Shown here piece after piece: positions 6,372 to 39,897 of a stretch of 42,776 nucleotides of DNA. Origin of the DNA: Bacteroidia bacterium. GTDB taxonomy: Bacteria; Bacteroidota; Bacteroidia; UKL13-3. A model generated the notes under the pieces. The model did not search any database and was not told where the DNA came from. It saw only the letters and a list, made by a program, of their open reading frames with translations. The DNA lies in contig JAKRSG010000046.1 in the NCBI GenBank assembly GCA_022402405.1, positions 1-42,776 of the forward strand, read 5' to 3'. Numbering within the stretch: the first letter of the stretch is position 1; each line of letters starts with the position of its first letter. Position numbers and translations under genes: made by a program.

Positions 6372-7967
6372 ATGCAAATCCACAAACATCAAAAAATGAA
6401 ATATTTAAATATTTTTTTTCTATTCGTAATTTTCAATCTAAAGGTGTTGGCTCAGCCAGTATACCCCTTAATTCCATTTCCAGAAGAAGTGACAATAGGA
6501 GATAAACTTTTCAGAATATCACCTCAGACCAACATTTTGGCTGAACCAAAATTAGAACAAGAGTTAAAATATTTGAAGAGTTACATTTTGGAAAACCACT
6601 TATTTGTTGTTAATACATCAGCAAAAATTAATAATCGCATTGTATTAAGATTAAAAACAGATTCTAATTCAAATCCAGAAGCATATCAAATAACCAGCAA
6701 CCCACGTGAAATAATTATTGAAGCATCTCATCCAAGCGGAATATTTTACGGTATTCAAACACTCATTCAATTATTTCCAACAGGAAAATTTGGGTCAATA
6801 AAAATACCTTGTGTTCAGATTAATGATAAACCTAATTATACATGGCGTGGCATGCATTTAGATTGTAGCAGGCATTTCTTCCCGATTTCTTTTATTAAGA
6901 AGTATATCGATATGCTTGCCTATTATAAAATGAATAGCTTTCATTGGCATTTAACCGACGACCAAGGTTGGCGTATTGAAATAAAAAAATATCCTAAATT
7001 AACCGAAATTGGCTCTGTTAGAAAAGGTACCATGATTGGACATTACCGCGACCAAAAATATGATAGCATAGCTTATGGTGGATTTTATACTCAAAAGGAA
7101 ATTAAAGAAGTTATTGAATATGCACAAAAGCGTCATGTAAACATTGTTCCAGAAATAGAAATGCCTGGTCATGCAGTAGCTGCCTTAGCTGCGTATCCTG
7201 AATATTCTTGCTCACAAAAGCCTTGTGAGGTTAGCATAAAATGGGGTGTAGAAACCAATGTGTTTTGCCCAAGCGAGGAAACATTTGCATTTTTGGAGGA
7301 TGTTTTAAATGAGATAATGGATTTATTCCCGGGTAAATACATTCATATTGGAGGTGATGAAGTGCCAAAAGAGGAATGGAATAATTCTGCATTTTGCCAA
7401 CAACTCATGAAAGAACAGAAACTCAAAAATGCAGAAGAATTACAATCTTATTTCATAAGAAGAGTTGAAAAAATTATTCAGAAAAAAGGCAAAACCATGA
7501 TTGGTTGGGATGAGATTTTAGAGGGTGGCTTAGCTCCAAATGCAGTTGTTATGAGCTGGCGCGGAACCGAGGGAGGTATTGCTGCCGCTAAAATGAATCA
7601 TTATGTAATTATGACTCCTGGCTCTCATTGTTATTTCGACCATTATCAAGGTAAACCAGAAAGCGAACCTTTAGCTATTGGAGGATATACTCCGCTCGAA
7701 AAAGTATATCAATTTAAGGTTTGTCCGGATACTCTTAACGAAACTGAATCTAAATTTATCTTGGGCGCTCAGGGTAATGTGTGGACAGAATACATTAAAA
7801 CTTCCGAACAAGTGGAATATATGGCTATGCCAAGAATGGCTGCATTGGCAGAGGTTCTGTGGTCGCAATCCAGCAAACGAGATTATGCAAACTTTTTGGC
7901 TAGGTTAAAAAGTCAGGAACCGTATCTAAAAAACAAAAAAATTAACTACTCCAAAACTTCCCTTTAG
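6372..7967 (+). CDS. Secreted beta-N-acetylhexosaminidase, GH20
   Basis: HWHLTDDQGWRIEIKKYPKLT and HIGGDEV catalytic motifs with an N-terminal signal peptide. An alternative start is the ATG at 6396 (MKYLNIFF...). Confidence 0.9.
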   Translation: MQIHKHQKMKYLNIFFLFVIFNLKVLAQPVYPLIPFPEEVTIGDKLFRISPQTNILAEPKLEQELKYLKSYILENHLFVVNTSAKINNRIVLRLKTDSNSNPEAYQITSNPREIIIEASHPSGIFYGIQTLIQLFPTGKFGSIKIPCVQINDKPNYTWRGMHLDCSRHFFPISFIKKYIDMLAYYKMNSFHWHLTDDQGWRIEIKKYPKLTEIGSVRKGTMIGHYRDQKYDSIAYGGFYTQKEIKEVIEYAQKRHVNIVPEIEMPGHAVAALAAYPEYSCSQKPCEVSIKWGVETNVFCPSEETFAFLEDVLNEIMDLFPGKYIHIGGDEVPKEEWNNSAFCQQLMKEQKLKNAEELQSYFIRRVEKIIQKKGKTMIGWDEILEGGLAPNAVVMSWRGTEGGIAAAKMNHYVIMTPGSHCYFDHYQGKPESEPLAIGGYTPLEKVYQFKVCPDTLNETESKFILGAQGNVWTEYIKTSEQVEYMAMPRMAALAEVLWSQSSKRDYANFLARLKSQEPYLKNKKINYSKTSL

Positions 7968-7982
7968 AAGCAACATTTACTT

Positions 7983-8990
7983 ATGAAAATTAGCAGAAAA
8001 AAATTTATTCATAGCAGCCTAATTGCTGGCAGTGCATTAGGATTAAATGCTTGTGTTTGGCCAGCTAAACCAGAAAAAAATAAACCATCAGGTAGTATAG
8101 TTAACCAACCAATTGTTCTTTCAACTTGGAGATTTGGCATAGAAGCAAATGCCGAAGCCTGGAAAATTTTATCCAATGGTGGTTCTGCATTAGATGCTGT
8201 GGAAGCAGGTGTTAAAGTGCCAGAAGCTGATCCAAAAGAAAGAAGTGTAGGTTATGGAGGCAGGCCAGATAGAGAAGGAATAGTAAGCTTAGATGCCTGC
8301 ATCATGGATCATTTGGGCAATATAGGTTCTGTAGTGTGTTTAGAAAATATAAAACATGCAATTTCTGTGGCGCGTGCCGTTATGGAAAAAACGCCTCATG
8401 TAATGTTAGCCGGTAAAGGTGCTCAACAATTTGCATTGGAACAAGGATTTAAACTCGAAAATTTATTGGTAGAAGAATCGAAAAAAGAATGGGAAGAATG
8501 GCTCAAAAAAAATGAATATAAACCTATTGCCAATATTGAAAATCACGACACTATAGGCATGCTAGCATTAGACCAATTTGGCAATCTTTCTGGTGCATGC
8601 ACTACAAGTGGAATGGCTTTTAAAATGCGAGGTAGAGTTGGCGATTCGCCCATAATTGGCGCAGGATTATACATAGATAATGAAGTGGGAGGAGCTACCG
8701 CAACCGGCCATGGAGAGGAAGTCATAAGAATAGCAGGAAGCTCTTTGGTTGTTGAACTAATGCGTCAAGGCTATTCACCAGAAAATGCTTGTAAAGAAGC
8801 TGTATCTAGGGTAGTAAATTTAATGAATCGTAGAAATAAAAACATTAAAGATATTCAGGTAGGTTTTATTGCACTTAATAAAGCAGGTGAATATGGATCA
8901 TATTGCGTGCAAAACGGATTTAATTATGCTCTTAAAACTTCCAAAGAAGAGGTACTTATCGATGCCCCATTTCATACAAAAATATCGTAG
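7983..8990 (+). CDS. N4-(beta-N-acetylglucosaminyl)-L-asparaginase (glycosylasparaginase), Ntn hydrolase
   Basis: HDTIGMLALD autoprocessing site with Thr nucleophile. GDSPIIGAGLY and GGATATGHGEE motifs. Signal or lipoprotein-like N-terminus ending in ...GLNAC. Confidence 0.9.
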   Translation: MKISRKKFIHSSLIAGSALGLNACVWPAKPEKNKPSGSIVNQPIVLSTWRFGIEANAEAWKILSNGGSALDAVEAGVKVPEADPKERSVGYGGRPDREGIVSLDACIMDHLGNIGSVVCLENIKHAISVARAVMEKTPHVMLAGKGAQQFALEQGFKLENLLVEESKKEWEEWLKKNEYKPIANIENHDTIGMLALDQFGNLSGACTTSGMAFKMRGRVGDSPIIGAGLYIDNEVGGATATGHGEEVIRIAGSSLVVELMRQGYSPENACKEAVSRVVNLMNRRNKNIKDIQVGFIALNKAGEYGSYCVQNGFNYALKTSKEEVLIDAPFHTKIS

Positions 8991-8993
8991 ATT

Positions 8994-9659
8994 ATGAGTC
9001 ACTTTTTAGAAGTTGCCTGCTTCAATGAGGCCTCTGCAATTTTGGCTCAAGAAAATGGCGCCGATAGAATTGAACTATGCGCTCATAGAGAATTAGACGG
9101 CATCTCTCCCCCACTTCAATGGATAAGTGAACTTAAAAAACACCTGCACATTCCTATGTTTGTAATGGTGCGACCAAGAGGCGGGAATTTTGTGTATTCT
9201 AATGAAGAGTTCGAATCTATGAAAATCTACCTCCAACAAGCTTTGCAAGCTGGCGCAGATGGCTTTGTTTTTGGCTGTTTACAAGCAAATTTCGGGCTGA
9301 ACCTAGACCAAAATAAAGCTCTCATTGAACTTGCAAATGAACTACCTTGCACTTTGCACAAGGCATTCGACTTATGTGATGATTTAGAAAAGACAATTAA
9401 TGAGGCTATTCAATTGGGATTTAGACAAATACTAAGTTCAGGAGGAATGAAAACAGCTCTTGAAGGTGCACAGGTACTTTCTAAATTAATTCTTAAATAT
9501 TCTCAAAAACTTGAAATCATGCCAGGTGCTAATGTAAGAAGTACTAACTTAGCAGAAATAAAAAATATTTGTCGCGCTAAATGGTATCATTCATCAGCTA
9601 TTATTGATAGCAGTACTTTACCAGATGCGCAGGAAATACAAGCGTTGAAAAAGGCATGA
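8994..9659 (+). CDS. cutC: CutC-family TIM-barrel protein
   Basis: LEVACFNEASAILAQENGADRIELC...MVRPRGGNFVYS...GADGFVFG pattern. No signal peptide. Its stop overlaps the next ATG (ATGA). Confidence 0.85.
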   Translation: MSHFLEVACFNEASAILAQENGADRIELCAHRELDGISPPLQWISELKKHLHIPMFVMVRPRGGNFVYSNEEFESMKIYLQQALQAGADGFVFGCLQANFGLNLDQNKALIELANELPCTLHKAFDLCDDLEKTINEAIQLGFRQILSSGGMKTALEGAQVLSKLILKYSQKLEIMPGANVRSTNLAEIKNICRAKWYHSSAIIDSSTLPDAQEIQALKKA

Positions 9660-12172
9660 AAATTAAATTATTTATACTGTTTACATTATTTTCTAAAATC
9701 AGTTTAGCTCAAGAAAGCAAAAATTACCTGGCTAATTTTTCTTGGCAATTACAAAGTTCCAAAACGTATAAAACAAGCATTCCAGCTTATGTTCCAAGCA
9801 ATGTACATGGGGTGTTGTTAACTAATAAATTAATTGATAATCCTCTTATAGAAAACAACTTAGCAAAGTTGGATTGGATTGAAAAAGAAGAATGGATATA
9901 TTCTACCCAGTTTACCATTACCGAACCAGATTTAAACTCTTTTTCAAACCTTACTTTATCTATAGAATCAATAGATACTTACTCTGATATATTTTTAAAT
10001 GACCAACTAATTTCGAGCAGTAAAAGTCAGTTTGTTCCTATCAACTTAGAAGTAAAAAAGCAAGTTAAAATAGGAACTAATACACTGAAGGTAATTTTGA
10101 AACCCAGCAAGGAAATAGCCAAAAATTTGTCAAAAAAATACAGCTATACTTTTCCTGGAGAAGACAGAGTATTTAGTAGAAAAGCTCCCTTTTCTTTTGG
10201 TTGGGATTTTGCACCCGAATTACCCGCATTTGGCATAAGTGAACCCAAATTAATACCATGGAATCTTGCCAAAATAAATCATGTTCGCTGCAAACAATTC
10301 GTAAATAAAGACAGTTCGGTTACCTTACAATGGTACTTAGAAATTGAAGCAAATGAAGATGCTACCACAGAACTTAATTATGGCACTACTTCACATTCGG
10401 TTCAAGAATCGGTTAAAAAGAAAATTAAACTTCAAAAAGGAATACATACTTATGAAGTTTCAAGTACTCTTAAGAAACCACTTTGGTGGTATTCAAACGG
10501 ATTTGGTTCAGCCCATTTATATAGCTACCAATTTAAGCTGATGCATCAAAAACAAATGCTTAGTACTTGGGAAGAAAAAATTGGTATACGCACCATTGAA
10601 TGGATAAGAGAAAATGATGAGGCTGGACAAAGTTTCTATCTTAAACTTAACGGGAAACCGGTTTTTATAAAAGGAGCTAATTGGGTACCTCCCAATATTT
10701 TTACGAGTGAAATAAGTACTGAGGATTATAGAAATTTACTGGTAAAAGCCGCCGATGTGAATATGAATATGGTTAGAATTTGGGGAGGTGGCATTTACCC
10801 TTCGAAAGAATTCTATAACCTGTGCGACTCTCTTGGAATACTTGTTTGGCAGGATTTTATGTTTGCTTGTGCAATGTATCCTGCAGATAGCCTGTTTCTA
10901 GATTTAGTAAAGGAAGAAATAGATGTTCAAATAAAGAAATTTCAAAATCATCCTTCTTTAGCCATTTGGTGTGGAAACAATGAAAATGCAGAAGGCTGGC
11001 ATAATTGGGGTTGGCAAAAACAATATAATTACTCTTTTCAAGATTCATCTGCTATTGCACATGCATATTATGCTCTTTTCGACTCATTAATTCCGGAACG
11101 ACTATCCCATCTGCAATCTAACACGTTTTATTGGTCGAGCTCACCCTCCATTGGTTGGGGTAAACCTGAAAGCTTAAAACGTGGAGATTTGCATTATTGG
11201 GGAATTTGGTGGGGAAATGAACCTTTTGAGAATTATCGAAATAAGGTAGGTAGATTTGTGAGTGAATATGGATTTCAATCTTTTCCTAATTACAGCACTT
11301 GTGAAAAAATTGGCATCATTAAAAATGCGGTGGTAGATTCTGCCATAGCTAGATTTCACCAAAAACATCCAATTGGATTTGAAACCATAAATCATTATTT
11401 AAAGCAGAATTATCCTGCAGCCAAAAACATAGAACAATTTGTTTATTTGAGTCAGTTATTACAAGCAAGGGGAATGGAAATTGCGATTGAAAGTCATAGA
11501 GCAGCCAAACCATATTGCATGGGTACATTATTCTGGCAGTTAAACGATGCATGGCCCGGAATTACGTGGAGTAGCATAGATTATTATGGCAAGAAAAAAG
11601 CATTTTACTATAAATTAAAAAGCAGTTATGCACCTTATTTTATAGCCGTAAAACATATACACGACTCCCTTGAAATAAAAGTTATTTCTGATGCTCCGCA
11701 AAGCATTTCTGGCGCAATACAATTTGTACATTGGAACAAAAATGGAAACGCTTTAGACCAGCAGATTAAAAGCATAAACATTCCAGAAAATAGTGCAACT
11801 ACCCATAGGTTTGCTATAAATAAGGAACTCAATATGAAAGATACGTGTGAATGGGTTATACAAGTTAACTTGTTAAACGGAGGTGAAAACATTGCTCAAA
11901 AAAACTTTTATTTCTGTTTGCCCCAGAACCTTAAATTAGCCAAAGAAAGCTATATCTTAGAAATGGTAGATGAACGTTCTTTCACTATTTATAGCGAGGT
12001 TCCTATGAAAGATATTTACATTCAATGTAAAGATTTTGATTTTGAAACCGACATAAATTATTTTGATTTGATGCCTTATCAAAAACAACTGATACAGGTT
12101 AAATCGAAGAATAATGTAAAATTTGAAAGAAAAGATTTTAACATTATCAGTTTTAATTCTCTCTTAAATTAG
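9656..12172 (+). CDS. Secreted beta-mannosidase, GH2
   Basis: Signal peptide. NGKPVFIKGANWVP, WQDFMFACAMYP, WCGNNEN (acid/base Glu) and VSEYGFQSFP (nucleophile Glu). Confidence 0.85.
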   Translation: MKIKLFILFTLFSKISLAQESKNYLANFSWQLQSSKTYKTSIPAYVPSNVHGVLLTNKLIDNPLIENNLAKLDWIEKEEWIYSTQFTITEPDLNSFSNLTLSIESIDTYSDIFLNDQLISSSKSQFVPINLEVKKQVKIGTNTLKVILKPSKEIAKNLSKKYSYTFPGEDRVFSRKAPFSFGWDFAPELPAFGISEPKLIPWNLAKINHVRCKQFVNKDSSVTLQWYLEIEANEDATTELNYGTTSHSVQESVKKKIKLQKGIHTYEVSSTLKKPLWWYSNGFGSAHLYSYQFKLMHQKQMLSTWEEKIGIRTIEWIRENDEAGQSFYLKLNGKPVFIKGANWVPPNIFTSEISTEDYRNLLVKAADVNMNMVRIWGGGIYPSKEFYNLCDSLGILVWQDFMFACAMYPADSLFLDLVKEEIDVQIKKFQNHPSLAIWCGNNENAEGWHNWGWQKQYNYSFQDSSAIAHAYYALFDSLIPERLSHLQSNTFYWSSSPSIGWGKPESLKRGDLHYWGIWWGNEPFENYRNKVGRFVSEYGFQSFPNYSTCEKIGIIKNAVVDSAIARFHQKHPIGFETINHYLKQNYPAAKNIEQFVYLSQLLQARGMEIAIESHRAAKPYCMGTLFWQLNDAWPGITWSSIDYYGKKKAFYYKLKSSYAPYFIAVKHIHDSLEIKVISDAPQSISGAIQFVHWNKNGNALDQQIKSINIPENSATTHRFAINKELNMKDTCEWVIQVNLLNGGENIAQKNFYFCLPQNLKLAKESYILEMVDERSFTIYSEVPMKDIYIQCKDFDFETDINYFDLMPYQKQLIQVKSKNNVKFERKDFNIISFNSLLN

Positions 12173-12196
12173 TTTCATTTGAAACGAGAGAAAATT

Positions 12197-14827: not shown

Positions 14828-14829
14828 GT

Positions 14830-16038: not shown

Positions 16039-16096
16039 ATTTTAAATGTACGCATTAATAAAGCCCCAAAGGTAAGGTATTTATCTGGCTTAAAGA

Positions 16097-17452
16097 CTAA
16101 TTTATATCCTTTAATATTCTGTACTCTGCCGGAAAGTAGTTATTTACTCGATTAGGTAATACCTTCATCCAACCCAAACTCAATCCTTTGTAACAGGCCA
16201 AATTCCAACCAATATTCCAAGCTGTATTAGGGCTTATATTGCCCTTTTTAAGATAGGTTTGTGCCTCTTCTAAACTCAATTCAACTTTAGAAAGTTGCGG
16301 ATTAACATGAACAGATAATGCCAATGAATGCTCTGGTATTAGCTGCATTTTTTTATCCAATTTCCCTAGACAAATACCTGCATATTTCAAGTATAACGCA
16401 TCACGCAAATGCTCGTAAACAGCCATTTTTTCTTTTAGAAAGGCAAACACAAAATCGTTTTCAATAAAATAATCAAACAGATTTGGTTCAGCCAGAAACG
16501 AATGAATTTCTGGTAAATGCTTTTTAGAGGCAAAGGTTAATTTGGCTGAACCTACTCGTTTTTTAGCATGGTTTACCTCCTCAGGTTTTTGAAGGATAGC
16601 AGCAAATAAACCTTCGCCTTTTACTTTATGTGGAAGAAATTTAAACTGGTAAAAATCTTCTGTATAAACAGGCCAATTTTCTGGAACCGTAACAGGAAAT
16701 GGCTTTAATTTATATTGTTCCTGAAGCATGGATACCTGGTTTTCATTCTCAAAAACATTGAATGTGCAGGTTGAATAAATAATAAATCCACCCGGTTTTA
16801 AACATGGTAAAATATCGTGTAAGATGCGAGCCTGACGAGCTTCACACAAATGCACATGCTCTAAACTCCATTCATTTATCGCCAACGGATCCCTACGCCA
16901 AAGCCCCTCTCCGCTGCATGGGGCATCCACCACAATCAAATCAAACAACTCACCTAACTTCTGAAAATGCTTTGGGTCGTTATTACTTACCACACAATTA
17001 GCCCGTCCCCAACGTATTAAATTTTCTTGCAATACACCTACTCTACTTTTAATTATCTCATTCGAAACCAATATCGAATCTTCATCTAAAGCATCTAATA
17101 AAGTAGTGCTCTTCCCCCCTGGAGCAGCACATAAATCTAAGGCTATTATCCCCTTTTTGTCTTTAGTTATGGCCTGAACCAACGCTGATAAAAACATACT
17201 TGAGCTCTCTTGAACATAATATGCTCCAGCATGAAATAACGGATCTTCAATAAATGAAGGTCGCTCAGTTAAAATTCTACCCTCCGAACACCACGGCACT
17301 ATTTCATCATTTGAAAACACATTTGACGACTTTGACTTATTGAGTCGAACAGAGGTATAGGTTTCATTATTTAAGGCATCAAAAAAATATCCTGCCTCTT
17401 TTGGGTAAAGCGACAGGATATGCTGTTTAAAATCTTCTGGCAATGGTATCAT
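16097..17452 (-). CDS. rsmF: RsmF/YebU-like RNA (cytosine-C5)-methyltransferase
   Basis: DLCAAPGGKS, DAPCSGEG and YSTCT motifs plus a C-terminal extension. I chose the ATG at 17452; the track start at 17461 is a TTG. Confidence 0.75.
   Translation of the reverse strand: MIPLPEDFKQHILSLYPKEAGYFFDALNNETYTSVRLNKSKSSNVFSNDEIVPWCSEGRILTERPSFIEDPLFHAGAYYVQESSSMFLSALVQAITKDKKGIIALDLCAAPGGKSTTLLDALDEDSILVSNEIIKSRVGVLQENLIRWGRANCVVSNNDPKHFQKLGELFDLIVVDAPCSGEGLWRRDPLAINEWSLEHVHLCEARQARILHDILPCLKPGGFIIYSTCTFNVFENENQVSMLQEQYKLKPFPVTVPENWPVYTEDFYQFKFLPHKVKGEGLFAAILQKPEEVNHAKKRVGSAKLTFASKKHLPEIHSFLAEPNLFDYFIENDFVFAFLKEKMAVYEHLRDALYLKYAGICLGKLDKKMQLIPEHSLALSVHVNPQLSKVELSLEEAQTYLKKGNISPNTAWNIGWNLACYKGLSLGWMKVLPNRVNNYFPAEYRILKDIN
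16485..16552. repeat. Inverted pair of the over-represented 9-mer (GGTTCAGCC ... GGCTGAACC) inside rsmF
   Basis: The copies at 16485-16493 and 16544-16552 are exact reverse complements, 50 nt apart. Confidence 0.9.
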
Positions 17453-17463
17453 TGCCAACAAAT

Positions 17464-22778: not shown

Positions 22779-22873
22779 GCCTAAAAAATTAAAAATCAAA
22801 AGTAATTATAAATTACAGGCTTAGCGAAACCTTTTATTAAAAGCCCATGTGCGAAACCCTGTTTTCTATACAC

Positions 22874-27481: not shown

Positions 27482-27482
27482 A

Positions 27483-27716
27483 TTATTTTGATTTGCGCAT
27501 GATGGCAAAAATGCCAACTACAAAACCTACTAGAACCACAATAGGTGCTAGAGTTAATTTTCTAAAATCAAAAATATCCTCTGAACCAACCATTAGTGCA
27601 AAACCAATGAAAACAATGGCAACAGATGCAATCATTAACAGGTAATTTTCTTTTGAAAATACAAAATTCTTAGTTGTTTGTACTTCTTTTTTTGCGCTCA
27701 ATCTATCTTTACTCAT
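27483..27716 (-). CDS. Small two-TM membrane protein (DUF3098-like)
   Basis: 77 aa from the ATG at 27716 (the track start is a TTG). It has two hydrophobic helices and occupies the conserved position between ftsX and uppP. Confidence 0.55.
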
Positions 27717-28733: not shown

Positions 28734-28800
28734 CAGACTTTTAAAAATAGAGTATCCTACAAATATTGCTTTTATTTGTTGGCAGAACCTGAATTAAATT

Positions 28801-31698: not shown

Positions 31699-31702
31699 TA
31701 CT

Positions 31703-31742
31703 AAATGGAGGCAAGATTAAAATAAATATCTTGCCTCCATTT
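31703..31742. terminator. 15-bp perfect hairpin shared by convergent leuS and the barrel gene
   Basis: aaatggaggcaagat (31703-31717) pairs with atcttgcctccattt (31728-31742) across a 10-nt loop. The right arm is the last 8 codons of the minus-strand gene. Confidence 0.6.
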
Positions 31743-34700
31743 TCCCTGTATGTATAATCGGAATCTCTCCCGATTTTCTACCTTCATAATTGAAGTTAAT
31801 CTGCAAATTTTGTCCAATCCTCTGTTGCCATTGAAAGCTCAGGATTTGATTATTACCTTTGCTTAAGCCCTGCAACATATCATACGCTAAAGGCGAATTT
31901 AAATTGCCATTAAACTCAACCTGGAATAAACTGTATTTGGCAGTTACAACCCCTATTTTAGGAAACGAATAACGTAGTTCAACTCCTCCTTGTTGTAACT
32001 TGCTTTGTTCGCCTCCAAGTTCTGGAATGTTAAATGATTCAATATAATTATAATCCAAACTTACTCGCCATATTTGCTGAAATTGATAGCTAATTTTGGG
32101 CTTATATTCATTAAAATTATACCTAAAATCGTTTGAGCTAAAAAACTCCGAACTCGTTCTTTTCTGACCAAAAATATAATTACCAGTTAAAGTCCAATTG
32201 GCATTCCAAGAATACCTTGCTCCAAAATTGTAATCCATCTTATCTCTCGATTCATATCCATTGGTTTGAAATGCCTTAGAACGCTGATTTGAATAGGTAA
32301 AGTCAAATCCATATTTTGGATCGTTTCTATTAAAAAACAAGGTGTTTCTTACTAAAGATGATAAGCTTACTATACTTGTATCTAACCAATTCCAATTAAT
32401 CAAAGGATTAAACTCTTTAGTACTTAATTTGCGTTCTAATCTGAGTGCTGCCTGATTACTAAATTTATTCACAAATCCTTTAAAACCAGAGTACCGTTTA
32501 GCACTAAATCCGTTAATCGTAAAAGTCTGACTAAACTGTGTACTTTGAATGCTAATTAAACTCGTTGTTGGCAAAAAAACTTTAATATAGTTGGCTAAAT
32601 TCCTATCTGCAAAGGATGCTATTTGAAATTCATTTAATTGCTTTAAACCATCGCCGTTAAAGTCTTTCCAAACGTAAAATCCCTGACCAATTGGAACCTC
32701 TACATATTGAAAATCTCTTCTTAACTCGTTTCCAGAACCTAGCTGTAAATAGGTATTGGCAGTAATTAATCTTTTAAAAAATGAATAATCATAGGTAATA
32801 CGTGCCAACAAAATTCTCTCAGGCTTCACCCCTGCTTTTGAACTATCTAATAACTGAAAATCTCTAAATGAAAAATCAATATTTAGTTTATTAAAATTCT
32901 TCTGAAACACATTCAACCCAAGCTTTAATTCTTTGGCCAAGCTTTGATCCTCAAATCTATCTGCCATTGGCAATTGATCGTAACGTACATTAGCCTCTGC
33001 ATAGTAACTTATATGCGAACTATCTTTACTTCTAAACAATAATGAATATTTTTGAAACGCATAACTTCCACTCAATAAAGTATCGTTACCTCTTTTAAAA
33101 TTACTTTCTTCGGTTTGCCAAGTTAAACCAATTAATAGCCATTTAACATCCCTAGTATAGGTGCTCTGCAAATTCCTTACTTCGGTTTGAACCGATGTAT
33201 TTAAAAGCAATTCAGCTCGTTTACCTGTTAACCATTCCACTTGTGTTTGCAATCTATTCTTTTCATTTTTCACATCCACTTGCAAGTTTTGGTTCAGCCC
33301 GGAAAAGGAATTTGTGTTTTTATTATAATATGAAAATTGATAGTTTATAAATCCATTTTTAGGACTAACGTAACCTAATTTCCATTGTAAAATATGTTCT
33401 TTATTGCCAGTATCAGAAGCAGATTCGTTGGATAATTGTCGGTTCCAAATTCTATTAAACTCCACATTTCTATAGCGCTCAACATATCTAAAACGTTGGC
33501 TGGTAAACTCATAATTTACAAATGATTGTATCTTAGAACCTTTATTTCCTACTACTAATTCATTGGTAGAACCAAGTAAAACAGCATAACCTGCATCGTC
33601 TTTTTTATCTAGCTCGCTAAATAAATTTTTATCAAGGCTACTGCGAGAGAATTCTACTTTTAGTTCTTGTCCTTTTTGCCAATTATAAACCGTACCAAGG
33701 TTTAACATTTGCATTCTATTAGGTGCTACCAATTGAATAATGGGTTCAAAATCTCCTTGCGGCACTCCGTTAATTGGTTCAACCCAAATAAATACACGCC
33801 CGTTTGCCGCGCTGGCCCCTTGTTTATAATTACCACTATTAGCCCCCACAAACGAAAATCTAAGCTCATAAAAAACAGAATCTTCGCCTTTATTGGGGGC
33901 ATGCACATAAACACCGTTATACCCTAAGGTATCTATTTTTCTGTATAAAGTTGATTGAGTGTTAAAGTCATTAACCTTCACTTCACTAAGAATTCGTGCA
34001 TTAGAAAGTTGGTCGCCCACAGAAGCCAATAACAATTTATTACTATCGCTTAACACCTGTTGAAACGACTGATTTTTATTATCCTGCTCGGTAAAATAAT
34101 TCAGGTAAACCTTTGCATTTTTCGACTCCCATTGGGTATTAAAACCCAATACCGTTCGGGCATAATTTCTATCCGAATATTGAAATTCAACGATAATTCT
34201 AGAGAATTGGGTTATGAGCTTTTTAGGCATAAAAACTATCTCACCTGTATTATAATCAATGGTATAATCATTCTGCTCTCCTCTTGTTAACTTTTGCCCA
34301 TCCAAATACACAGCTTCCGTTCCTGATATAATAATAATAAACAACTCTCCATTGGCGCCTTGTAGTCGGTACGGACCTTGATTTCCCTCCTGCCCTTGAA
34401 TTACATTTCTGGCAAACCTACCTCTCGATAATGCAGCTTCGCCGTTTACTCTTAGTAGTTGTTTTTTATTCAAAGCTATCTCATTATAACTGGCCAATCC
34501 ACGCGATTTTTTATAATAATTCAAGAAATAGCTAGGCTCTGGTTTTAACATTAAATAATCGCCCACAATCAACTTATGATTTAGCTTAGAAAACTGAATA
34601 AATACTCTATCAAAATCTTGCAGCTCTTGGGTATTTCCCTCCGGTTGTATCGGATTATTCTCGTCGCTAATAGCGGCTAAAACATCAATTTCATTATTTA

Positions 34701-35193
34701 ATTTTCCAGCCAACTGTAGGTTTAAATTTGCATTAACAATCGCATTCTGCGTATTGCCAATGCTTAATCCACGCATAATACTACCGCTCGTTTGTAAGCC
34801 CTCATTGCCAGCAATAGGATTAAATGCAGTGGTTCCAGCGGGTAACCTATATGGGTTTACTGTTTCCATAAATTCTGGCTGAACCAACCCTAATTCTTTC
34901 CGCTTTTGTTTGGATGGAAGGGTGTATCTAAAGGGTAAATATTCTATACTTAAAAGTGTTTGTTTGGGGATGTTTAGGTTAATAAATGTACCCTTATAAT
35001 AGTCAATTTTATAATCTACTCCCTCTTGGTAATGTAAAACCTTAACACTCCCCTTAACCACAATAAATGTATCTAAAACAAAGGTATCTGCTTCTAATAA
35101 AACTTGTTTAAATTGAGGCCTTCCAGAACTTACTTGTTGAGCTCCGAGCCTTAAGAAAACCAAACATATTACCCATGTAAAAATCCATTTCAT
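31717..35193 (-). CDS. Large (1158 aa) predicted outer-membrane beta-barrel protein (putative porin-like), function unknown
   Basis: Signal peptide (MKWIFTWVICLVFLRLGAQQ). Alternating beta-strand pattern rich in Y/F/N/G/S throughout. C-terminal aromatic ending ...ARYLF. The ATG overlaps the kinase stop (ATGA). Confidence 0.6.
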   Translation of the reverse strand: MKWIFTWVICLVFLRLGAQQVSSGRPQFKQVLLEADTFVLDTFIVVKGSVKVLHYQEGVDYKIDYYKGTFINLNIPKQTLLSIEYLPFRYTLPSKQKRKELGLVQPEFMETVNPYRLPAGTTAFNPIAGNEGLQTSGSIMRGLSIGNTQNAIVNANLNLQLAGKLNNEIDVLAAISDENNPIQPEGNTQELQDFDRVFIQFSKLNHKLIVGDYLMLKPEPSYFLNYYKKSRGLASYNEIALNKKQLLRVNGEAALSRGRFARNVIQGQEGNQGPYRLQGANGELFIIIISGTEAVYLDGQKLTRGEQNDYTIDYNTGEIVFMPKKLITQFSRIIVEFQYSDRNYARTVLGFNTQWESKNAKVYLNYFTEQDNKNQSFQQVLSDSNKLLLASVGDQLSNARILSEVKVNDFNTQSTLYRKIDTLGYNGVYVHAPNKGEDSVFYELRFSFVGANSGNYKQGASAANGRVFIWVEPINGVPQGDFEPIIQLVAPNRMQMLNLGTVYNWQKGQELKVEFSRSSLDKNLFSELDKKDDAGYAVLLGSTNELVVGNKGSKIQSFVNYEFTSQRFRYVERYRNVEFNRIWNRQLSNESASDTGNKEHILQWKLGYVSPKNGFINYQFSYYNKNTNSFSGLNQNLQVDVKNEKNRLQTQVEWLTGKRAELLLNTSVQTEVRNLQSTYTRDVKWLLIGLTWQTEESNFKRGNDTLLSGSYAFQKYSLLFRSKDSSHISYYAEANVRYDQLPMADRFEDQSLAKELKLGLNVFQKNFNKLNIDFSFRDFQLLDSSKAGVKPERILLARITYDYSFFKRLITANTYLQLGSGNELRRDFQYVEVPIGQGFYVWKDFNGDGLKQLNEFQIASFADRNLANYIKVFLPTTSLISIQSTQFSQTFTINGFSAKRYSGFKGFVNKFSNQAALRLERKLSTKEFNPLINWNWLDTSIVSLSSLVRNTLFFNRNDPKYGFDFTYSNQRSKAFQTNGYESRDKMDYNFGARYSWNANWTLTGNYIFGQKRTSSEFFSSNDFRYNFNEYKPKISYQFQQIWRVSLDYNYIESFNIPELGGEQSKLQQGGVELRYSFPKIGVVTAKYSLFQVEFNGNLNSPLAYDMLQGLSKGNNQILSFQWQQRIGQNLQINFNYEGRKSGEIPIIHTGKMEARYLF

Positions 35194-38100
35194 TCAGATT
35201 CTCTTAACGGAATTCGAACTCTAAAACGTGTCCCCTCTCCTAATTTACTTTCAAAGCCAATATCACCACCACCGCTCTCAATCATAGCTTTTACAATAGG
35301 TAAACCCAATCCCATACCAATAACTTTTGTACTAAAATAGGGCATAAAAATCTTAGATTTTTGTTCGTCAGATATTCCAGTACCATTGTCCAATACTTCC
35401 AAAAATAAATAATTATCTGCTTTGTAAACCTCTATCATTACTTTGCCTTTTTTATCTTCTGGTATAGCCTGACAAGCATTTTTAATAAGATTGGTGAGTG
35501 TTCTATTTAAATAACCTAAGTCGAACCACAATTGAGTATCCTCTTCACATGTATAATTTATCTCTCCATCAAAATTTTCTCTTTGTAAATAAACAAGCTC
35601 TTCTAATAAATTATTTACGTGAATCCATTCATATTGTGGAGCAGGCATTTTGGCAAAACTACTAAATTCAGTAGCCAAATTACTTAGCGTATCTATCTGT
35701 GTAATGAGGGTTCTGGTTACTCGCTGAAAGGTTTCTGGCAATTTAGGTGATTGATCTTTCCATGCTCGTTCTAGATGCTGCACGCTTAATTTCATAGGAG
35801 TTAGCGGATTTTTTATCTCATGTGCAATCTGTCGGGCAATATCTCTCCACGCACCTTCGCGTTCGCTTATAGCCAGTTTTTCTGCACTCTCAGCAAGTTG
35901 GTCAATCATCAAATTATATTGCTGAACCAAACCTCCTATTTCGTCGTTGCGCGACCATTGAATAGGTTCATTCTGTTTACCAAAAATTGTTTTGGCCATC
36001 TGTTGTTGGATCAGCATAAGTGGATAAGAAATATTACGCGAAACCAACCATGCAATTATTCCAATAACCATAAACAGCAAAGCATAAAGATTAATAAAAC
36101 CCACGATTATACTAGATATCTCAGAGTTTAAATCGATGTTTTGATAAAAATTAGGAAGTTGAACATACCCTAATAGCATTCGATTTTTGCCAAATACTGG
36201 CACATAAGCTCCTGTATACTGAAAGGTTGCTATTCTTTCTTGCTGTACATATTGTGATTCACGTAAATTATGTAAATGGTAATAAGCTTGTGCATCCATC
36301 AATGGTGCAACAATCCCCTCGGTATATACTTTTTTAATAGTAGAACTCAACATTTCTCCATGCGAGTTAAAGAAAGTTATATCTGTATTGTAAAAATCTG
36401 CAATCTGATTGATACTAGCTTCGGCATCACTTTGGCGTTTGTTAAAGTTTATTTCCTGACTTTCATTCTCAATAGCACTAACTACACTGCGCAATTTTTT
36501 AACTAACTTTTCTTCCTGTCTAATGGCATTTTGTTTACTAATAAAGCTAATGGTAAAATAGGCTGTACTTCCTAAAGTTAAAAATACTATTAGCAATATC
36601 CCCAGTTGAATTCGAGTCCTAATTAGCGATAATTCAGTTTCTTTTAGGGTTATAAATGAGTTTAATTTATGCTGTATAAAAAGATAATACGGATGATTTT
36701 TAATATAGCTTAGTCCAAGCCACCTGTTATTAAAAAAAGTATAAATGGCAATCACTATCAAAAATAAAAACGACAATAAAGTAAAGCTCAACGAAAACAA
36801 TCCTAATGGTTCATACCATGCCGCTTCTTTCCTACTTACCACTACATATAATTGGTCGTTTTCTTTAAACAATAAATGACTGTATCCATTTTCCTCAAAA
36901 ATACCACTCTTCCCATTTATATCATTGAAAGTAAAAGTGGTTCTATAAGCATATTCACCACTCTGACTCAACAATCTCATATCACGGTATAAAGCAAAAG
37001 AATAGGATCGGTGACGGTTATAATGGTTTCTAAACCCATCAATTAATAATTCATCAAATCTGGTCTCGTCTTGAACCAATTTAGGTTGCAAGTGAATAAA
37101 TATATAACCAGCTATTCCATTCTCATTTCGAACAATAAATCTTCCTAAATAACCTTTTAAATAGGCGTTATTCTTGAGAAATCTAAAGTATTGATTAATG
37201 GTAGTGCTACCTAAATTTTGATAAATATAATTTACCTGATTATAATGATAAATATTTCGTGTTTGATAATGAGACTTATTAGCATTGTAATCGTAAACGG
37301 TAATATCGTATTTGCCCAGATAGCCCGAGAAATATAGCTGTCGTAGTTTTTTTACCATTTGAGATTTAAATGCAATAGGATTAGAAAAGTAATTTTTTAG
37401 AATCTTCTCTGATTCTATTTTCTTTTCAATATCTTCTAAAAAATATTCAGCATTAACATCATTTTGACTAACCAATTTAGCCGCATATAGAAACCTATTT
37501 TCCTCTTCTTCGATAGTACTATAATGATATAAGGTAACAGAGGTAATCACGCTCAATAACATTATAAATACAAAATACCTCTGAAACCTCTTTAAATAGT
37601 TAACTGCAAAGTTTTCGTATAGGATAAAACTGAATAATAAAATGCTACTAGAAAAGGTATATGAACTATTTCGCTCAAATAAGTATTGAACCAAAAATGG
37701 GTGAAGAAAGAAAAAAACCAAACCCACTACAAAGAACTTTTCATAAAAAGAAAGGCTTGCTAATCGCAAGAAAACATACCATTTCTCAAACATTTTGTAA
37801 CATAAAAAAAGCAGTAAAAATGCTAATAGAATTCCTAAAAAGGTAAATCCATTAATACTGTATATATTTTTTACATCAAACGATATCTGAGAGTCAAAAA
37901 CTAAACTCTTAATGCTGTCAAATGCTGCATCTGCCAAAACCATCGATAGCCAAGTAAGAAATATAAACTTTAACAAGAGTATGGGCTTCGTGCTTTCTAC
38001 CCCAATACTTTCTTTTCTAATTAAATTAAAGTACCAGAGTAATAACAATACTGAAATCAAAAAATCTCCCAATGAAGGATGATAAATGGAAGATGCATAA

Positions 38101-38906
38101 ATATCCGGACCAAACAACTTTTGGTTATATAAAAAAACGGGTAGTTTGTTTACCATTAATAACCATCTGGTTAATTGCGTAAACCCTATGAACACCACAC
38201 TTCCTAGTAAAAAGTGCTTATTTATCAACTCTTTGCACAACAAATGAAATAATATTAAACTCATTCCAAATGTTAGGATTATTAGTAATCGAAGCCAATC
38301 AGGTGTAATCTTGGGGAAACCAAAAATTTGTATTGAACACAAATAATTCCCTTTTCTATCAAATAAATCTTGAAAATCTTGAATAGGTGATGGACTAAAT
38401 AGTGCCGAACCTAAAAAGCTAAGGTCTTTGTTTATGTGATTTTGTATATATTGATTTTGAAATTGATAATTCGTTTTAAGTTGATAAAATATGGCTACTT
38501 TAAAAGAATTCTGTTGCAGAAATGTTACCAAAAAAGAACCATTGTTGGTGTTTAAATAAAAGAAACCAGGTTTTAAAACAGGTAAATATTTGGAAGAATT
38601 AATAGTATTATCCGTCCACAACACCAATGTATCTTGCTTAAATAAATGTATAATCACCTTTTGCTGTTGAGCTAATTCAAGATAATCTGTCCACTTGCGT
38701 GCAATCTGCGTGGTGTCTTGAAGTACTTGATAAACAAGATCTCTACATTCTGCTTCTTTATCTAGTATTACTTGCTGAATGTGCTCATAATTGTTTTGAG
38801 CCTGTTGTTTAGTATCTTGTAAAATACCTATTTCTGAACCTATAAGCGAAAATAAAAAAACGATGCTTATAACAAACCAAAGTAGATATTTAAGTAAATT
38901 ATTCAA
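35190..38906 (-). CDS. Very large (1238 aa) polytopic NtrY-like sensor histidine kinase
   Basis: More than 12 TM helices in the first roughly 970 aa. A HAMP-like segment is followed by the H-box ARQIAHEIKNPLTPM, N-box LIKNACQA, G1 LDNGTGI and G2 GLGLPIVK. Apparent TTG start. Confidence 0.85.
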   Translation of the reverse strand: MNNLLKYLLWFVISIVFLFSLIGSEIGILQDTKQQAQNNYEHIQQVILDKEAECRDLVYQVLQDTTQIARKWTDYLELAQQQKVIIHLFKQDTLVLWTDNTINSSKYLPVLKPGFFYLNTNNGSFLVTFLQQNSFKVAIFYQLKTNYQFQNQYIQNHINKDLSFLGSALFSPSPIQDFQDLFDRKGNYLCSIQIFGFPKITPDWLRLLIILTFGMSLILFHLLCKELINKHFLLGSVVFIGFTQLTRWLLMVNKLPVFLYNQKLFGPDIYASSIYHPSLGDFLISVLLLLWYFNLIRKESIGVESTKPILLLKFIFLTWLSMVLADAAFDSIKSLVFDSQISFDVKNIYSINGFTFLGILLAFLLLFLCYKMFEKWYVFLRLASLSFYEKFFVVGLVFFFLHPFLVQYLFERNSSYTFSSSILLFSFILYENFAVNYLKRFQRYFVFIMLLSVITSVTLYHYSTIEEEENRFLYAAKLVSQNDVNAEYFLEDIEKKIESEKILKNYFSNPIAFKSQMVKKLRQLYFSGYLGKYDITVYDYNANKSHYQTRNIYHYNQVNYIYQNLGSTTINQYFRFLKNNAYLKGYLGRFIVRNENGIAGYIFIHLQPKLVQDETRFDELLIDGFRNHYNRHRSYSFALYRDMRLLSQSGEYAYRTTFTFNDINGKSGIFEENGYSHLLFKENDQLYVVVSRKEAAWYEPLGLFSLSFTLLSFLFLIVIAIYTFFNNRWLGLSYIKNHPYYLFIQHKLNSFITLKETELSLIRTRIQLGILLIVFLTLGSTAYFTISFISKQNAIRQEEKLVKKLRSVVSAIENESQEINFNKRQSDAEASINQIADFYNTDITFFNSHGEMLSSTIKKVYTEGIVAPLMDAQAYYHLHNLRESQYVQQERIATFQYTGAYVPVFGKNRMLLGYVQLPNFYQNIDLNSEISSIIVGFINLYALLFMVIGIIAWLVSRNISYPLMLIQQQMAKTIFGKQNEPIQWSRNDEIGGLVQQYNLMIDQLAESAEKLAISEREGAWRDIARQIAHEIKNPLTPMKLSVQHLERAWKDQSPKLPETFQRVTRTLITQIDTLSNLATEFSSFAKMPAPQYEWIHVNNLLEELVYLQRENFDGEINYTCEEDTQLWFDLGYLNRTLTNLIKNACQAIPEDKKGKVMIEVYKADNYLFLEVLDNGTGISDEQKSKIFMPYFSTKVIGMGLGLPIVKAMIESGGGDIGFESKLGEGTRFRVRIPLRESE

Positions 38907-38928
38907 GATTAAAATTCTTTGGGTTTAC

Positions 38929-39897
38929 CTAGCATCTGCTATCTTTCTCTAAGTAATTTTGAACATAATCCTTCACCCCTTCCTCTATACTTGTAAAGGG
39001 CGTTGTGTAACCACTGGCATGTAATTTATGCATGGTGGCTTCAGTAAAATATTGATAAGATTCTCGAATATCCTCTGGACTAGGGATATAATTTATTTTA
39101 ACAGGTTTATCCAACGCACTAAAAATAGCACTGGCCAGGTCATTCCATGTTCTAGCATTACCACAACCTAAATTGTAAATTCCAGAATTCTTTCTGTGGT
39201 GCATTAAAAACAAACATACATCGCACAAATCTTTTACATAGATAAAGTCGCGCATCTGCTCGCCATCCTTATATTCTACTCTGTGCGATTTAAACAACTT
39301 CACTTCAGATGTCTGTTTAATCTGATGATATGCATGAAAAACAACACTTGCCATTCTACCTTTATGATACTCATTCGGACCATAAACATTAAAGAATTTT
39401 AGTCCAGCCCAAAAATAAGGCCTATTCTCTTGGCTTAAAACCCATTTATCAAAATCGTTTTTAGAATTACCATATGGATTTAATGGATGCAGTACATCTA
39501 ATTTAGCTTCATCATCTGTATATCCATTTTCACCCGCTCCATAAGTAGCTGCACTGGATGCATACACAATTGGTATTCCCTCACTCGCACAAACTCCAAA
39601 TAATCTCTGGCTGAACCAAAGATTTAATTCATTAAATATTTGCACATCTTTCTCACTGGTATCCGTTCTAGCACCTATATGAAAAACAAATTGAACTTCG
39701 TGCGCATTTTTATCTAACCAATCAAAAAAATTCGGGCGGGTAACTAACTCTTTATATTTTTTTCCTTTGAGATTTTTGGCACGTTCAGGTATATCATTAA
39801 AATCGTCTACTAGAACTAAGTCAAAATATTGGTTAGCATTTAAATACGCCACCAAACAACTTCCAATAAAACCTTCGGCTCCTGTAACAATAATCAT
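38929..39897 (-). CDS. hldD: NAD-dependent sugar epimerase, ADP-L-glycero-D-manno-heptose 6-epimerase (HldD/RfaD)-like
   Basis: MIIVTGAEGFIGS Rossmann motif, YASSAATYG, and the NPYGNSK (YxxxK) catalytic motif. Confidence 0.65.
   Translation of the reverse strand: MIIVTGAEGFIGSCLVAYLNANQYFDLVLVDDFNDIPERAKNLKGKKYKELVTRPNFFDWLDKNAHEVQFVFHIGARTDTSEKDVQIFNELNLWFSQRLFGVCASEGIPIVYASSAATYGAGENGYTDDEAKLDVLHPLNPYGNSKNDFDKWVLSQENRPYFWAGLKFFNVYGPNEYHKGRMASVVFHAYHQIKQTSEVKLFKSHRVEYKDGEQMRDFIYVKDLCDVCLFLMHHRKNSGIYNLGCGNARTWNDLASAIFSALDKPVKINYIPSPEDIRESYQYFTEATMHKLHASGYTTPFTSIEEGVKDYVQNYLEKDSRC

Follow-up and report, generated by a model that had tools for sequence, protein, structure and literature searches.

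The window, the whole 42,776-nt stretch analysed here, comes from a MAG of uncultured freshwater (lake) Bacteroidota. Its GC content is 0.34, close to the one-third assumed in the first-pass annotation, and its gene content is housekeeping only. The 9-mer GGTTCAGCC, or its complement GGCTGAACC, was found in ten exact copies, all where that annotation had placed them: four start on the plus strand (10505, 16485, 28282 and 33291) and six on the minus strand (6539, 9295, 13377, 16544, 34877 and 39609). Each fits the 11-mer consensus T-(T/A)-GGTTCAG-C-C. The motif is sharp and asymmetric, with an information content of about zero beyond the 11 positions. The flanks had been described as conserved; TT or TA does precede the core in every full copy, but nothing outside the 11-mer is conserved. 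The 14-mer TTGGTTCAGCCAGA is indeed common to three copies, at 16483 on the plus strand and, as the complement, at 34874–34887 and 39606–39619, although both complement ranges had been given one base too long.

The full 11-mers occupy eight unrelated genes. In the GH20 gene (6372–7967, plus strand), TTGGTTCAGCC lies antisense at 6539–6549 on the minus strand, over L-A-E-P. An antisense TAGGTTCAGCC in cutC (8994–9659, plus) at 9295–9305 on the minus strand covers G-L-N-L with a rare CTG codon and is kept in the 95% relative (L226 16737). The GH2 gene (9656–12172, plus) carries TTGGTTCAGCC in sense at 10503–10513 on the plus strand (F-G-S-A); this copy and the one at 16470–16493 have 22 of 24 nt in common. 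The GH20-like gene (12179–14827, plus) has an antisense TAGGTTCAGCC at 13377–13387 on the minus strand (W-L-N-L). Two copies in opposite orientations stand 50 bp apart in rsmF (16097–17461, minus): TTGGTTCAGCC, with the 14-mer, at 16483–16493 on the plus strand (antisense, L-A-E-P), and TAGGTTCAGCC at 16544–16554 on the minus strand (sense, V-G-S-A). The antisense TTGGTTCAGCC of ftsX (27770–28633, minus), at 28280–28290 on the plus strand over R-L-N-Q, is unique to the window's genome, and several point substitutions mark the orthologous sites in L001, L002, L003 and L054. The 1158-aa ORF (31717–35193, minus) holds two TTGGTTCAGCC copies. One, at 33289–33299 on the plus strand (antisense, G-L-N-Q), is common to L003, and the site reads TTGGTTCAAGCC in L001 and L002; the other, at 34877–34887 on the minus strand (sense, L-V-Q-P), has the 14-mer with AGA and is common to L002 and the 95% relative (L217 9335). 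The epimerase (hldD-like) gene (38929–39897, minus) contains the last TTGGTTCAGCC, again in the 14-mer with AGA, at 39609–39619 on the minus strand (sense, W-F-S-Q); all four aligned genomes have the 9-mer at this orthologous position.

The 7-mer GGTTCAG occurs 24 times in the window, 10 times on the plus strand and 14 on the minus strand, and every reported copy was recovered in its place. Beyond the full copies, sense cores lie in the GH20-like gene (ttGGTTCAGac, 12302–12308, plus) and in rsmF (ttGGTTCAGgc, 17174–17180, minus, L-V-Q). The LysM gene (21096–22799, minus) has two antisense cores on the plus strand, tgGGTTCAGaa at 22150–22156 and ttGGTTCAGtt at 22241–22247, and the pspC-domain gene (23870–25672, plus) has two on the minus strand, ttGGTTCAGaa at 24144–24150 and ttGGTTCAGgt at 24812–24818; the second core in each gene uses CTG-AAC. 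A minus-strand ttGGTTCAGag (27581–27587) lies outside the listed ORFs, between uppP/bacA (26681–27517) and ftsX. The histidine-kinase gene (35190–38906, minus) carries two sense cores on the minus strand, ttGGTTCAGca at 35922–35928 and taGGTTCAGaa at 38834–38840; both are unique to the window's genome in the ortholog alignment, and the 95% relative has the first as well (L217 8292). Two plus-strand cores are intergenic, ttGGTTCAGac at 40459–40465 (in 40397–40480) and taGGTTCAGac at 41419–41425 (in 41397–41494). The NMT1-like gene (40480–41397, minus) has two minus-strand cores in sense, atGGTTCAGcg at 40637–40643 and atGGTTCAGgc at 41025–41031, the latter common to L002. A plus-strand ttGGTTCAGca at 42593–42599 is antisense to the partial thioesterase-like ORF at the contig end, the homologue of which is L217 1322–1744.

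Both words exceed expectation under each null model. Dinucleotide shuffling gave 0.20 copies of the 9-mer (maximum 1 in 100 shuffles) and 3.05 of GGTTCAG (maximum 9). An order-3 Markov model of the window predicts 0.19 copies of the 9-mer and ranks the motif word as the most over-represented at each k from 6 to 10. The codon-aware null, 1000 synonymous-codon shuffles made per gene or pooled, yielded 0.34 ± 0.57 copies of the 9-mer (maximum 4) and 8.7 ± 2.0 of the 7-mer (maximum 15). Expectations over the models range from 0.2 to 0.34 for the 9-mer and from 3 to 9 for GGTTCAG; the 9-mer is over-represented 30–50 fold and the 11-mer still more. On average, an 11-mer occurs every 4.3 kb and a core every 1.8 kb, the spacing is random-looking (CV 0.88), and the copies have no link with terminators or inverted-repeat pairs.

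These tests support the earlier proposal that selection acts on the DNA word and not on a peptide. The distribution on which that proposal was based is correct throughout: eight host genes, five of the six reading frames, four sense and six antisense copies, and CTG-Leu, with 6 of the window's 56 CTG codons inside motif copies. A codon or peptide effect is rejected because five of six frames are used, the rare CTG-AAC is recruited and synonymous shuffles never gave more than four copies; nucleotide retention, described below, agrees. The coding sequence of a conserved peptide can contain the 9-mer, as seen for GGTTCAGCCCATATTTT at one conserved site in homologues of ORF 1641–3059 from distant taxa, and TTGGTTCAG occurs in some tRNA D-arms (L220). 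However, the window's only tRNA (Rfam, ARAGORN) has no motif copy, and the same enrichment recurs in independent NCBI, ENA, JGI and Logan assemblies. A mobile-repeat origin, raised as a possible refutation, was rejected: flank comparison in the window revealed no longer repeat around the copies, which lie at orthologous indel-free sites and are gained or lost by point substitution. Chance, a codon or peptide artefact, mobile-repeat remnants and an assembly or adapter artefact are thus refuted by shuffles, frames, flanks and independent assemblies, and we give this explanation almost no weight.

The sequences compared all come from a single chromosomal neighbourhood, roughly 60 kb long. The clade is made up of the window's MAG and those relatives that reach at least 78% LeuRS identity and at least 88% RsmB identity. 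Per 10 kb, the window has 2.3 copies of the 9-mer and the seven relatives (145 kb) have 1.3; a single copy was found in 1.12 Mb (65 loci) of outgroup Bacteroidota. In 68.6 kb from relatives, the motif was again the top 9-mer (13 observed, 0.39 expected). The density is uneven among relatives and regions; one 21-kb locus (L228) has seven cores and no full 9-mer. In this neighbourhood, close relatives show the enrichment that had been suggested as a check, and the word is specific to a single narrow clade within the uncultured Bacteroidota of fresh water.

Point substitutions create the word from near-matches anywhere in ordinary genes, in both orientations and in any frame free of stops. Among 22 orthologous indel-free sites, the word is present in one genome at 12, in two at 7, in three at 1 and in four at 2. 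Once formed, copies outlast the neighbouring sequence by far. Of 57 pairwise comparisons, 30 (53%) preserve the motif 9-mer, compared with 10.2% for other 9-mers; where the peptide is identical, 56% of motif windows and 18% of others have the same nucleotide sequence. Third-codon-position identity among the compared genomes is only about 50%. The word is a probable genome signature, maintained at the level of double-stranded DNA. The apparently frozen synonymous sites and the origin from near-matches would also suit a repair or mutation bias that recognizes specific sequences, for example very-short-patch-like repair or gene conversion biased around a modification site; near-matches would then be converted into the word as a by-product, and the word itself would have no function. 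For HIP1, a repair-drive model has been put forward (PMC4390886). The window contains no methyltransferase or Vsr gene among its genes. Known VSP effects are about two-fold changes in word frequency at 4–5-bp palindromic m5C sites, and we know of no repair system that recognizes an asymmetric 11-bp site, which makes this origin very improbable.

The 4:6 strand split had been read as evidence against a polar signal. The split itself is too weak against a Chi-like polarity of 60–70%, but strong polarity is disfavoured by the enrichment of both orientations, each about 40-fold or more (about 0.1 expected per strand) on a single contig. The pooled copies lean to the window's minus strand (54 versus 33), which a rough inference from GC skew split by gene strand suggests is the leading strand. 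This lean, the rank of GGTTCAG as top 7-mer, the conservation of the word in core genes, and the core's length of 7 nt and frequency of one per 1.8 kb, both close to those of AddAB Chi sites, would fit a recombination hotspot that has only a moderate replication-strand bias and is recognized by an AddAB or RecBCD-type enzyme of the clade. However, copies in plus-strand genes split 16:16, and the minus-strand excess is mostly a sense-strand excess (53 sense, 30 antisense), as expected from the stop in the antisense frame C-TGA-ACC and from G-rich sense strands; once orthologous copies are collapsed, the full 9-mer sites divide about 6:8 by tally. Wrong-orientation Chi in E. coli is near expectation, whereas the supposed inactive orientation is itself enriched here, and to our knowledge no described Chi approaches a specificity over 11 positions and an enrichment above 100-fold. 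The tests thus argue against a strongly polar Chi- or KOPS-type signal, with weak polarity compatible with the pooled data, and we consider a hotspot improbable.

The best reading, which we hold tentatively and by analogy, is that of an uptake-sequence-like word for self-recognition, read on double-stranded DNA; the nearest known parallel would be the uptake sequences with which Neisseria and Haemophilus recognize their own DNA. The most likely force would be the one that builds DUS and USS in Neisseriaceae and Pasteurellaceae. A surface DNA receptor of the natural-transformation machinery would prefer word-bearing fragments, those of dead relatives would more often be taken up and recombined, motif-bearing alleles would spread by molecular drive, and cells would preferentially take up DNA from their own clade. 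The likeness to uptake sequences proposed earlier stands for length, density, use of both strands, clade restriction and point-mutation origin, a mode also described for DUES (PMC1939737); it fails for terminators, because about half of DUES lie in predicted terminators in a 177-genome survey (bioRxiv 10.1101/2025.10.24.684340) and the present copies lack this link. The random-looking spacing and the variable density also count against it. In favour of its plausibility in this phylum, ComEC-domain proteins occur across Bacteroidetes lineages except endosymbiotic Blattabacterium (PMC6299819), and Riemerella species show natural competence with a preference for their own DNA, although they have yielded no DUS (PMC7965970). 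Their transformation machinery, the one studied in Bacteroidota, is described as unique (PMC8459023), and a ComP-type pilin receptor should therefore not be assumed here. As the first-pass annotation had stated, no uptake sequence is described for Bacteroidota in the literature searched (PMC7965970; bioRxiv 10.1101/2025.10.24.684340), and an uptake-sequence-like word is probably new for the phylum.

The same statistics fit any other process that reads the word on duplex DNA. A HIP1-like but non-palindromic recognition word unrelated to uptake, serving for example an abundant protein that organises the nucleoid or chromosome, or as a 'self' mark for a defence or repair system, is a possible though rather doubtful explanation. 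Orientation independence, intragenic sites in all open frames, clade restriction and synonymous-site maintenance fit it equally well, and the absence of terminator association and the random spacing resemble HIP1-type words (PMC4390886). In contrast to the present word, those of the HIP type are palindromic and linked to methyltransferases, and this explanation names no mechanism for making new copies. The matS, SBS, NBS and parS systems use tens of sites per genome, and we know of no nucleoid, partition or occlusion system with hundreds of strict 11-bp asymmetric intragenic sites.

Compared with known word systems, the motif resembles KOPS/AIMS as a short over-represented chromosomal word, but those are by definition strongly skewed to one strand per replichore, whereas on this single 42.8-kb contig the strand ratio is 4:6 for the 9-mer and 10:14 for the core. 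With Chi (RecBCD/AddAB) it shares a 7-nt over-represented core, conservation in core genes, lineage specificity and a frequency of roughly one per 2–5 kb; it differs in its strong two-orientation enrichment, its lack of clear replication polarity (the even split in plus-strand genes), its 11-nt specificity and its far larger enrichment. HIP1 (GCGATCGC) of cyanobacteria, the function of which is still unknown (PMC4390886), is likewise a very abundant, lineage-specific short word inside and outside genes and not a mobile element; HIP words have cognate methyltransferases, and no such link was seen for the asymmetric word here. DUS and USS belong to Proteobacteria and are unrelated in sequence, the CTGAA common to DUS GCCGTCTGAA being a chance match. 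They occur about once per 1.1–1.5 kb, so that the present word is 3–4 times less dense on these figures; it lacks terminator or inverted-pair association and, compared with USS, the flanking AT-tract structure. The likeness to DUS and USS extends to a short (9–12 bp), non-palindromic, clade-specific word that is tens- to hundreds-fold over-represented and top-ranking in the genome sample, is common within genes in both orientations and several reading frames, arises by point mutation at orthologous sites and not by insertion (PMC1939737), and is retained beyond neutral expectation.

The 9-mer GGTTCAGCC occurs ten times in the 42,776 bp of the window, at 10505, 16485, 28282 and 33291 in plus orientation and at 6539, 9295, 13377, 16544, 34877 and 39609 as the complement, exactly where the first-pass annotation had placed it. 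Dinucleotide-preserving shuffles of the window contain 0.20 copies on average and one at most. The 7-mer core GGTTCAG is present in 24 copies, as had also been claimed, compared with 3.05 expected and a maximum of 9 in the dinucleotide shuffles, and the GC content of 0.34 agrees with the value of about one-third assumed in the earlier estimate. In an unbiased k-mer screen of the window with an order-3 Markov model, the word ranks first at each k from 6 to 10. The excess persists under the codon-aware null proposed at first pass, here 1000 synonymous-codon shuffles, per gene and pooled, that preserve proteins and codon usage: the 9-mer reaches 0.34 ± 0.57 copies (maximum 4; 10 observed) and the 7-mer 8.7 ± 2.0 (maximum 15; 24 observed).

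The ten full copies are spread over eight unrelated housekeeping genes (GH20, cutC, GH2, the GH20-like gene, rsmF, ftsX, the 1158-aa ORF and the hldD-like epimerase), four in sense and six in antisense; hosts, frames and strand split are all as first described. The peptides across these copies are LAEP, (G/W/R)LN, GSA, LVQP and WFSQ. CTG-Leu accounts for 56 codons in the window (4% of Leu codons), six of which lie within motif copies. Aligned core sites, 58 in all and drawn from the window and five of its relatives, define a T at -2 (49/58), T or A at -1, GGTTCAG, and then C (31/58) and C (36/58), with approximately zero information content outside these 11 positions. The T-W prefix precedes all ten window 9-mers, and the core's one-mismatch variants show no enrichment. 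The word is a strict asymmetric 11-bp DNA word, read irrespective of gene, frame or orientation.

ORFs contain 20 of the 24 cores, and a further one sits in an incomplete ORF where the contig ends; three are in intergenic DNA. Regular spacing was not detected and the distribution is near random (CV 0.88); the sole close inverted pair, 16485/16544, lies within rsmF. Terminator-like structures in the window occur at chance level, and none is made of the motif. A hairpin with a perfect 20-bp stem and a 3-nt loop at 23272-23314, in the gap between the LysM and PadR/PspC genes, is probably a bidirectional terminator and contains no motif copy. A repeat search of the window revealed nothing longer than ~20 nt around the copies, with one exception: 10490-10513 and 16470-16493 have 22 of 24 nt in common (TAWTCAAACRGATTTGGTTCAGCC), 13 nt beyond the motif. 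The genes of this pair are unrelated (GH2 in sense, rsmF in antisense), and either chance or a short tract of conversion could explain the similarity.

A tRNA origin was considered, as the core resembles a D-arm and, loosely, a T-loop, and was rejected: the one tRNA detected in the window by Rfam and ARAGORN, a tRNA-Lys, has no motif copy, and the full copies are all coding. Three putative D-arm sequences, GCTCAG(C/T)TGGTTCAG(A/G)GC, which contain (C/T)TGGTTCAG, were observed at 6336, 6672 and 7030 of L220, a locus of 'Bacteroidetes bacterium B1(2017)', where they adjoin small GIY-YIG ORFs. The likeness between motif and D-arm is probably coincidental.

Two other peculiarities of the window were observed. 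The palindrome TAAGCTTA, which contains the HindIII-type AAGCTT, has nine sites (1185, 4835, 8284, 13866, 15298, 19163, 19240, 25020 and 32362) compared with ~1.3-1.4 expected, corresponding to a both-strand count of 18 versus 2.6-2.7. Over-represented palindromes are unusual, and this one is nearly missing from close relatives (0-1 per locus), so that its enrichment looks species-specific. In addition, the Val codon GTC is nearly unused (7 of 774 Val codons across all window ORFs), an extreme codon-usage quirk; CGG is used only six times in all window ORFs, and the GTC/GAC trinucleotide overall occurs in the window at 0.56 of expectation.

The orientation of the copies on the window contig is 4:6 (plus to minus) for the 9-mer and 10:14 for the core. 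The first-pass annotation took the 4:6 split as an argument against a polar signal of the Chi or KOPS type. Signals such as KOPS or AIMS have a strand skew above 80% within a replichore, and no such skew was found in the window or the pooled loci; strong KOPS-type polarity is excluded by these data from one ~60-kb neighbourhood. The 4:6 split by itself involves too few copies to reject a bias of the Chi type. Unique core sites, pooled before loci with plus-strand genes were added, are distributed 26:14 toward the minus strand (65%), and a rough GC-skew decomposition by gene strand suggests that the minus strand is the leading strand, a combination that would favor a weakly polar Chi. Plus-strand genes were then covered by fetching relatives' loci through RsmB homologues. 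In the resulting pool of ten loci (188 kb, orthologous redundancy included), the copies are distributed 16:16 in plus-strand genes, which counts against Chi, and 14 on plus versus 37 on minus in minus-strand genes. Over both gene sets, 53 copies are in sense and 30 in antisense. A sense excess of ~60% is expected, because one antisense frame, C-TGA-ACC, is closed by a stop codon and because sense strands are rich in G. The bias thus tracks the sense strand and not the absolute strand. Chi is enriched on the leading strand in its active orientation and stays near background in the inactive one; here, each orientation of the full word exceeds expectation ~40-fold or more on a single contig, unlike the prediction for an orientation-dependent single-strand signal. 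A weakly polar Chi is therefore improbable, although a weak polarity below about 65% may be compatible with the data, which come from this one ~60-kb neighbourhood.

The window spans a whole contig of its NCBI MAG. Its nearest relatives by LeuRS (L001, L002, L003, L054 and L039; 78-86% identity) are MAGs whose sample names are of the lake or pond type, and RsmB and YihY homologues led to a 95-96% relative (L217, L226) on a Logan contig of 107 kb, to L225, from the L001 species, and to a third species (L228). L225 (JGI 3300071567, Ga0621872_00010, 1,280,315-1,301,523) lies on a 2.88-Mb contig that looks complete and belongs to the L001/GCA_947459415.1 species, and its synteny with the window is broken between the LysM block and pspC/truB. 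The 9-mer and the core occur at 2.3 and 5.6 per 10 kb in the window and at 1.3 and 4.35 per 10 kb in seven relatives (145 kb), compared with 0.009 (one copy in 1.12 Mb) and 1.0 in 65 loci of outgroup Bacteroidota with LeuRS identity no higher than 70%. The enrichment in close relatives, which had been proposed as a check, is thus present, and the top 9-mer in the pooled relatives is the same word (13 observed versus 0.39 expected). The enrichment is a heritable trait of a narrow clade. It recurs in assemblies made independently and taken from four sources, which excludes an artefact of assembly or adapters. Density is uneven: over its 21 kb, L228 carries seven cores and zero full 9-mers, and in B1(2017), the next outgroup, any core excess is weak at most. 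Sister lineages yielded no dialect of their own; CATAAGC looked mildly enriched in three of their loci (L004, L012 and L026), 20-kb samples that are too small to judge a dialect. From the one ~60-kb chromosomal neighbourhood sampled, the density extrapolates to several hundred copies per 2.9-Mb genome. For practical purposes, the word sharply marks this clade's contigs in binning.

When ten syntenic genes are aligned by codon across the window, L001, L002, L003, L054 and L039, the motif copies fall at orthologous, indel-free positions. Where a genome lacks a given copy, its site departs from the motif-bearing one by one or several point substitutions, as with TTGGTTCAGCC versus TTGGTTCAAGCC or CTGGTTCAATT. 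Well-covered genes hold 22 sites: 12 occur in a single genome, 7 in two genomes, 1 in three and 2 in four. Turnover is by point mutation, not insertion. The compared genomes have 73-80% DNA identity and ~50% at third codon positions; the motif 9-mer is intact in the second genome in 30 of 57 comparisons (53%) versus 10.2% for other 9-mers of the same genes, the genome pairs being non-independent. When only peptide-identical windows are considered, 56% of motif copies versus 18% of the others are nucleotide-identical (Fisher P = 2e-8, with pairs that are not phylogenetically independent). This excess, which is large and holds also at identical peptide, indicates that the word's synonymous positions are preserved, or formed anew time and again, at the level of DNA. 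As the underlying force, a drive from repair or mutation is very improbable. The signal is real, strong and evolutionarily maintained at the DNA level. The earlier claim that selection acts on the DNA word and not on a peptide is borne out by the codon shuffles (which never exceed four copies), the five frames and the retention at identical peptide. A dispersed repeat of the REP/MITE type was rejected, as the copies lack extended flanks and are gained by substitution; the flanks, the repeat search and the indel-free sites likewise rule out that the copies are parts of a longer mobile repeat, the outcome named at first pass as refuting. An origin in artefact, peptide effect or mobile repeat is effectively refuted.

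The first 6500 nt of the window contain no core copy, compared with ~3.6 expected at the mean window density (P about 0.03), which is suggestive only. This region holds a MazF-family toxin-like ORF (3056-3463) and two ORFs without a family match. In relatives, fabD directly adjoins the GH20 gene, so part of this region may be accessory DNA. Metagenome homologues of ORF 1641-3059 (13 loci, the best 72% identical) contain little motif, and homologues of the pyruvate-carboxylase fragment are only partial proteins on short contigs. In L204-L214, distant homologues of ORF 1641-3059, some of which have 53% GC, GGTTCAGCCCAT(A/C)TT occurs at one conserved peptide site (G-S-A-H) ~340-415 nt into the gene and is absent from the ORF of the window. 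The 9-mer can thus occasionally come from protein conservation alone, and these occurrences, confined to a single conserved peptide site, were set aside as irrelevant to the clade signal. For the 14-mer TTGGTTCAGCCAGA, only single chance matches were found among the at least 120 matches listed from IMG/VR. One viral locus, L150 (IMGVR_UViG_3300020048_000531), has three GGTTCAGCC copies at 605, 3345 and 3841 on a 4.1-kb piece of a 28-kb contig (40% GC), beside a gene for a C5 DNA methyltransferase. Of the three, one served as bait in the search, and the two further copies are unexpected (~0.02 expected).

We know of no other characterised process that yields this pattern than that of uptake sequences: biased uptake of word-bearing DNA followed by homologous recombination would build up copies. 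By analogy with DUS/USS, such a process is a serious, if tentative, candidate for the force behind the word. Another function read on the duplex, HIP1-like or a self mark, appears somewhat less likely; a HIP-type element is a palindrome with a methyltransferase target, whereas the word is not palindromic and the window has no methyltransferase gene. Should it have no role in uptake, the word would stand as a conserved genomic word, strongly enriched irrespective of orientation, and as a non-palindromic counterpart of HIP1 equally worth explaining.

As regards the uptake-sequence reading, MAGs are the sole source for this uncultured lineage, and no competence or pilus genes were found in the window or the fetched flanks, one ~60-kb neighbourhood. 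The DUS/USS receptors are the minor pilin ComP in Neisseria and, by prediction, ComN in Pasteurellaceae. ComEC-domain proteins occur across Bacteroidetes lineages except the endosymbiotic Blattabacterium (PMC6299819). Riemerella is naturally competent and prefers its own DNA, and a k-mer search there returned only A-rich words, hence no DUS is known in it (PMC7965970). Its machinery comprises ComEC, DprA and ComF together with proteins reported as unique, and four transformation genes are Riemerella-specific (PMC8459023). Given this reported uniqueness, an uptake receptor of the lake lineage would probably be unrelated to the neisserial ComP pilin. Searches on the word itself found only primers. 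In agreement with the statement that no uptake sequence is described in Bacteroidota, the literature searched, including recent surveys, places DUS/USS in Neisseriaceae and Pasteurellaceae, two proteobacterial families, only (bioRxiv 10.1101/2025.10.24.684340, 10.1101/2025.06.16.659825).

With somewhat more doubt, the word may represent the first uptake (self-recognition) sequence outside Proteobacteria and point to sequence-selective transformation in uncultured, genome-streamlined lake Bacteroidota. Uptake sequences are, to our knowledge, the sole case in which DNA-import machinery reshapes a whole genome. If the reading is true, sequence-biased uptake evolved independently at least three times, and the third case would show that the phenomenon is general. 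Natural competence would be predicted in an abundant uncultured freshwater lineage, the 11-mer added to donor DNA would offer a simple handle for genetic tractability, and the search would open for a new type of DNA receptor.

By analogy, the word is best described as uptake-sequence-like, none having been described in this phylum in the literature searched. The resemblance to DUS/USS proposed at first pass holds for word-level traits and not for placement, and uptake itself is suggested by analogy. The frequent terminator placement of DUS/USS, often as inverted pairs, was not found in the window; the word of this clade also differs in having no flanking AT-tract structure and a density 3-4 fold lower than that of DUS/USS. 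Like DUS/USS, it is a short specific word that is strongly over-represented, here in a sample of ~190 kb, less than one genome, and it is specific to its clade, with 1.3-2.3 copies per 10 kb compared with the single outgroup copy. Its copies arise by point mutation in existing sequence, as described for DUS/USS (PMC1939737), and are preferentially retained.
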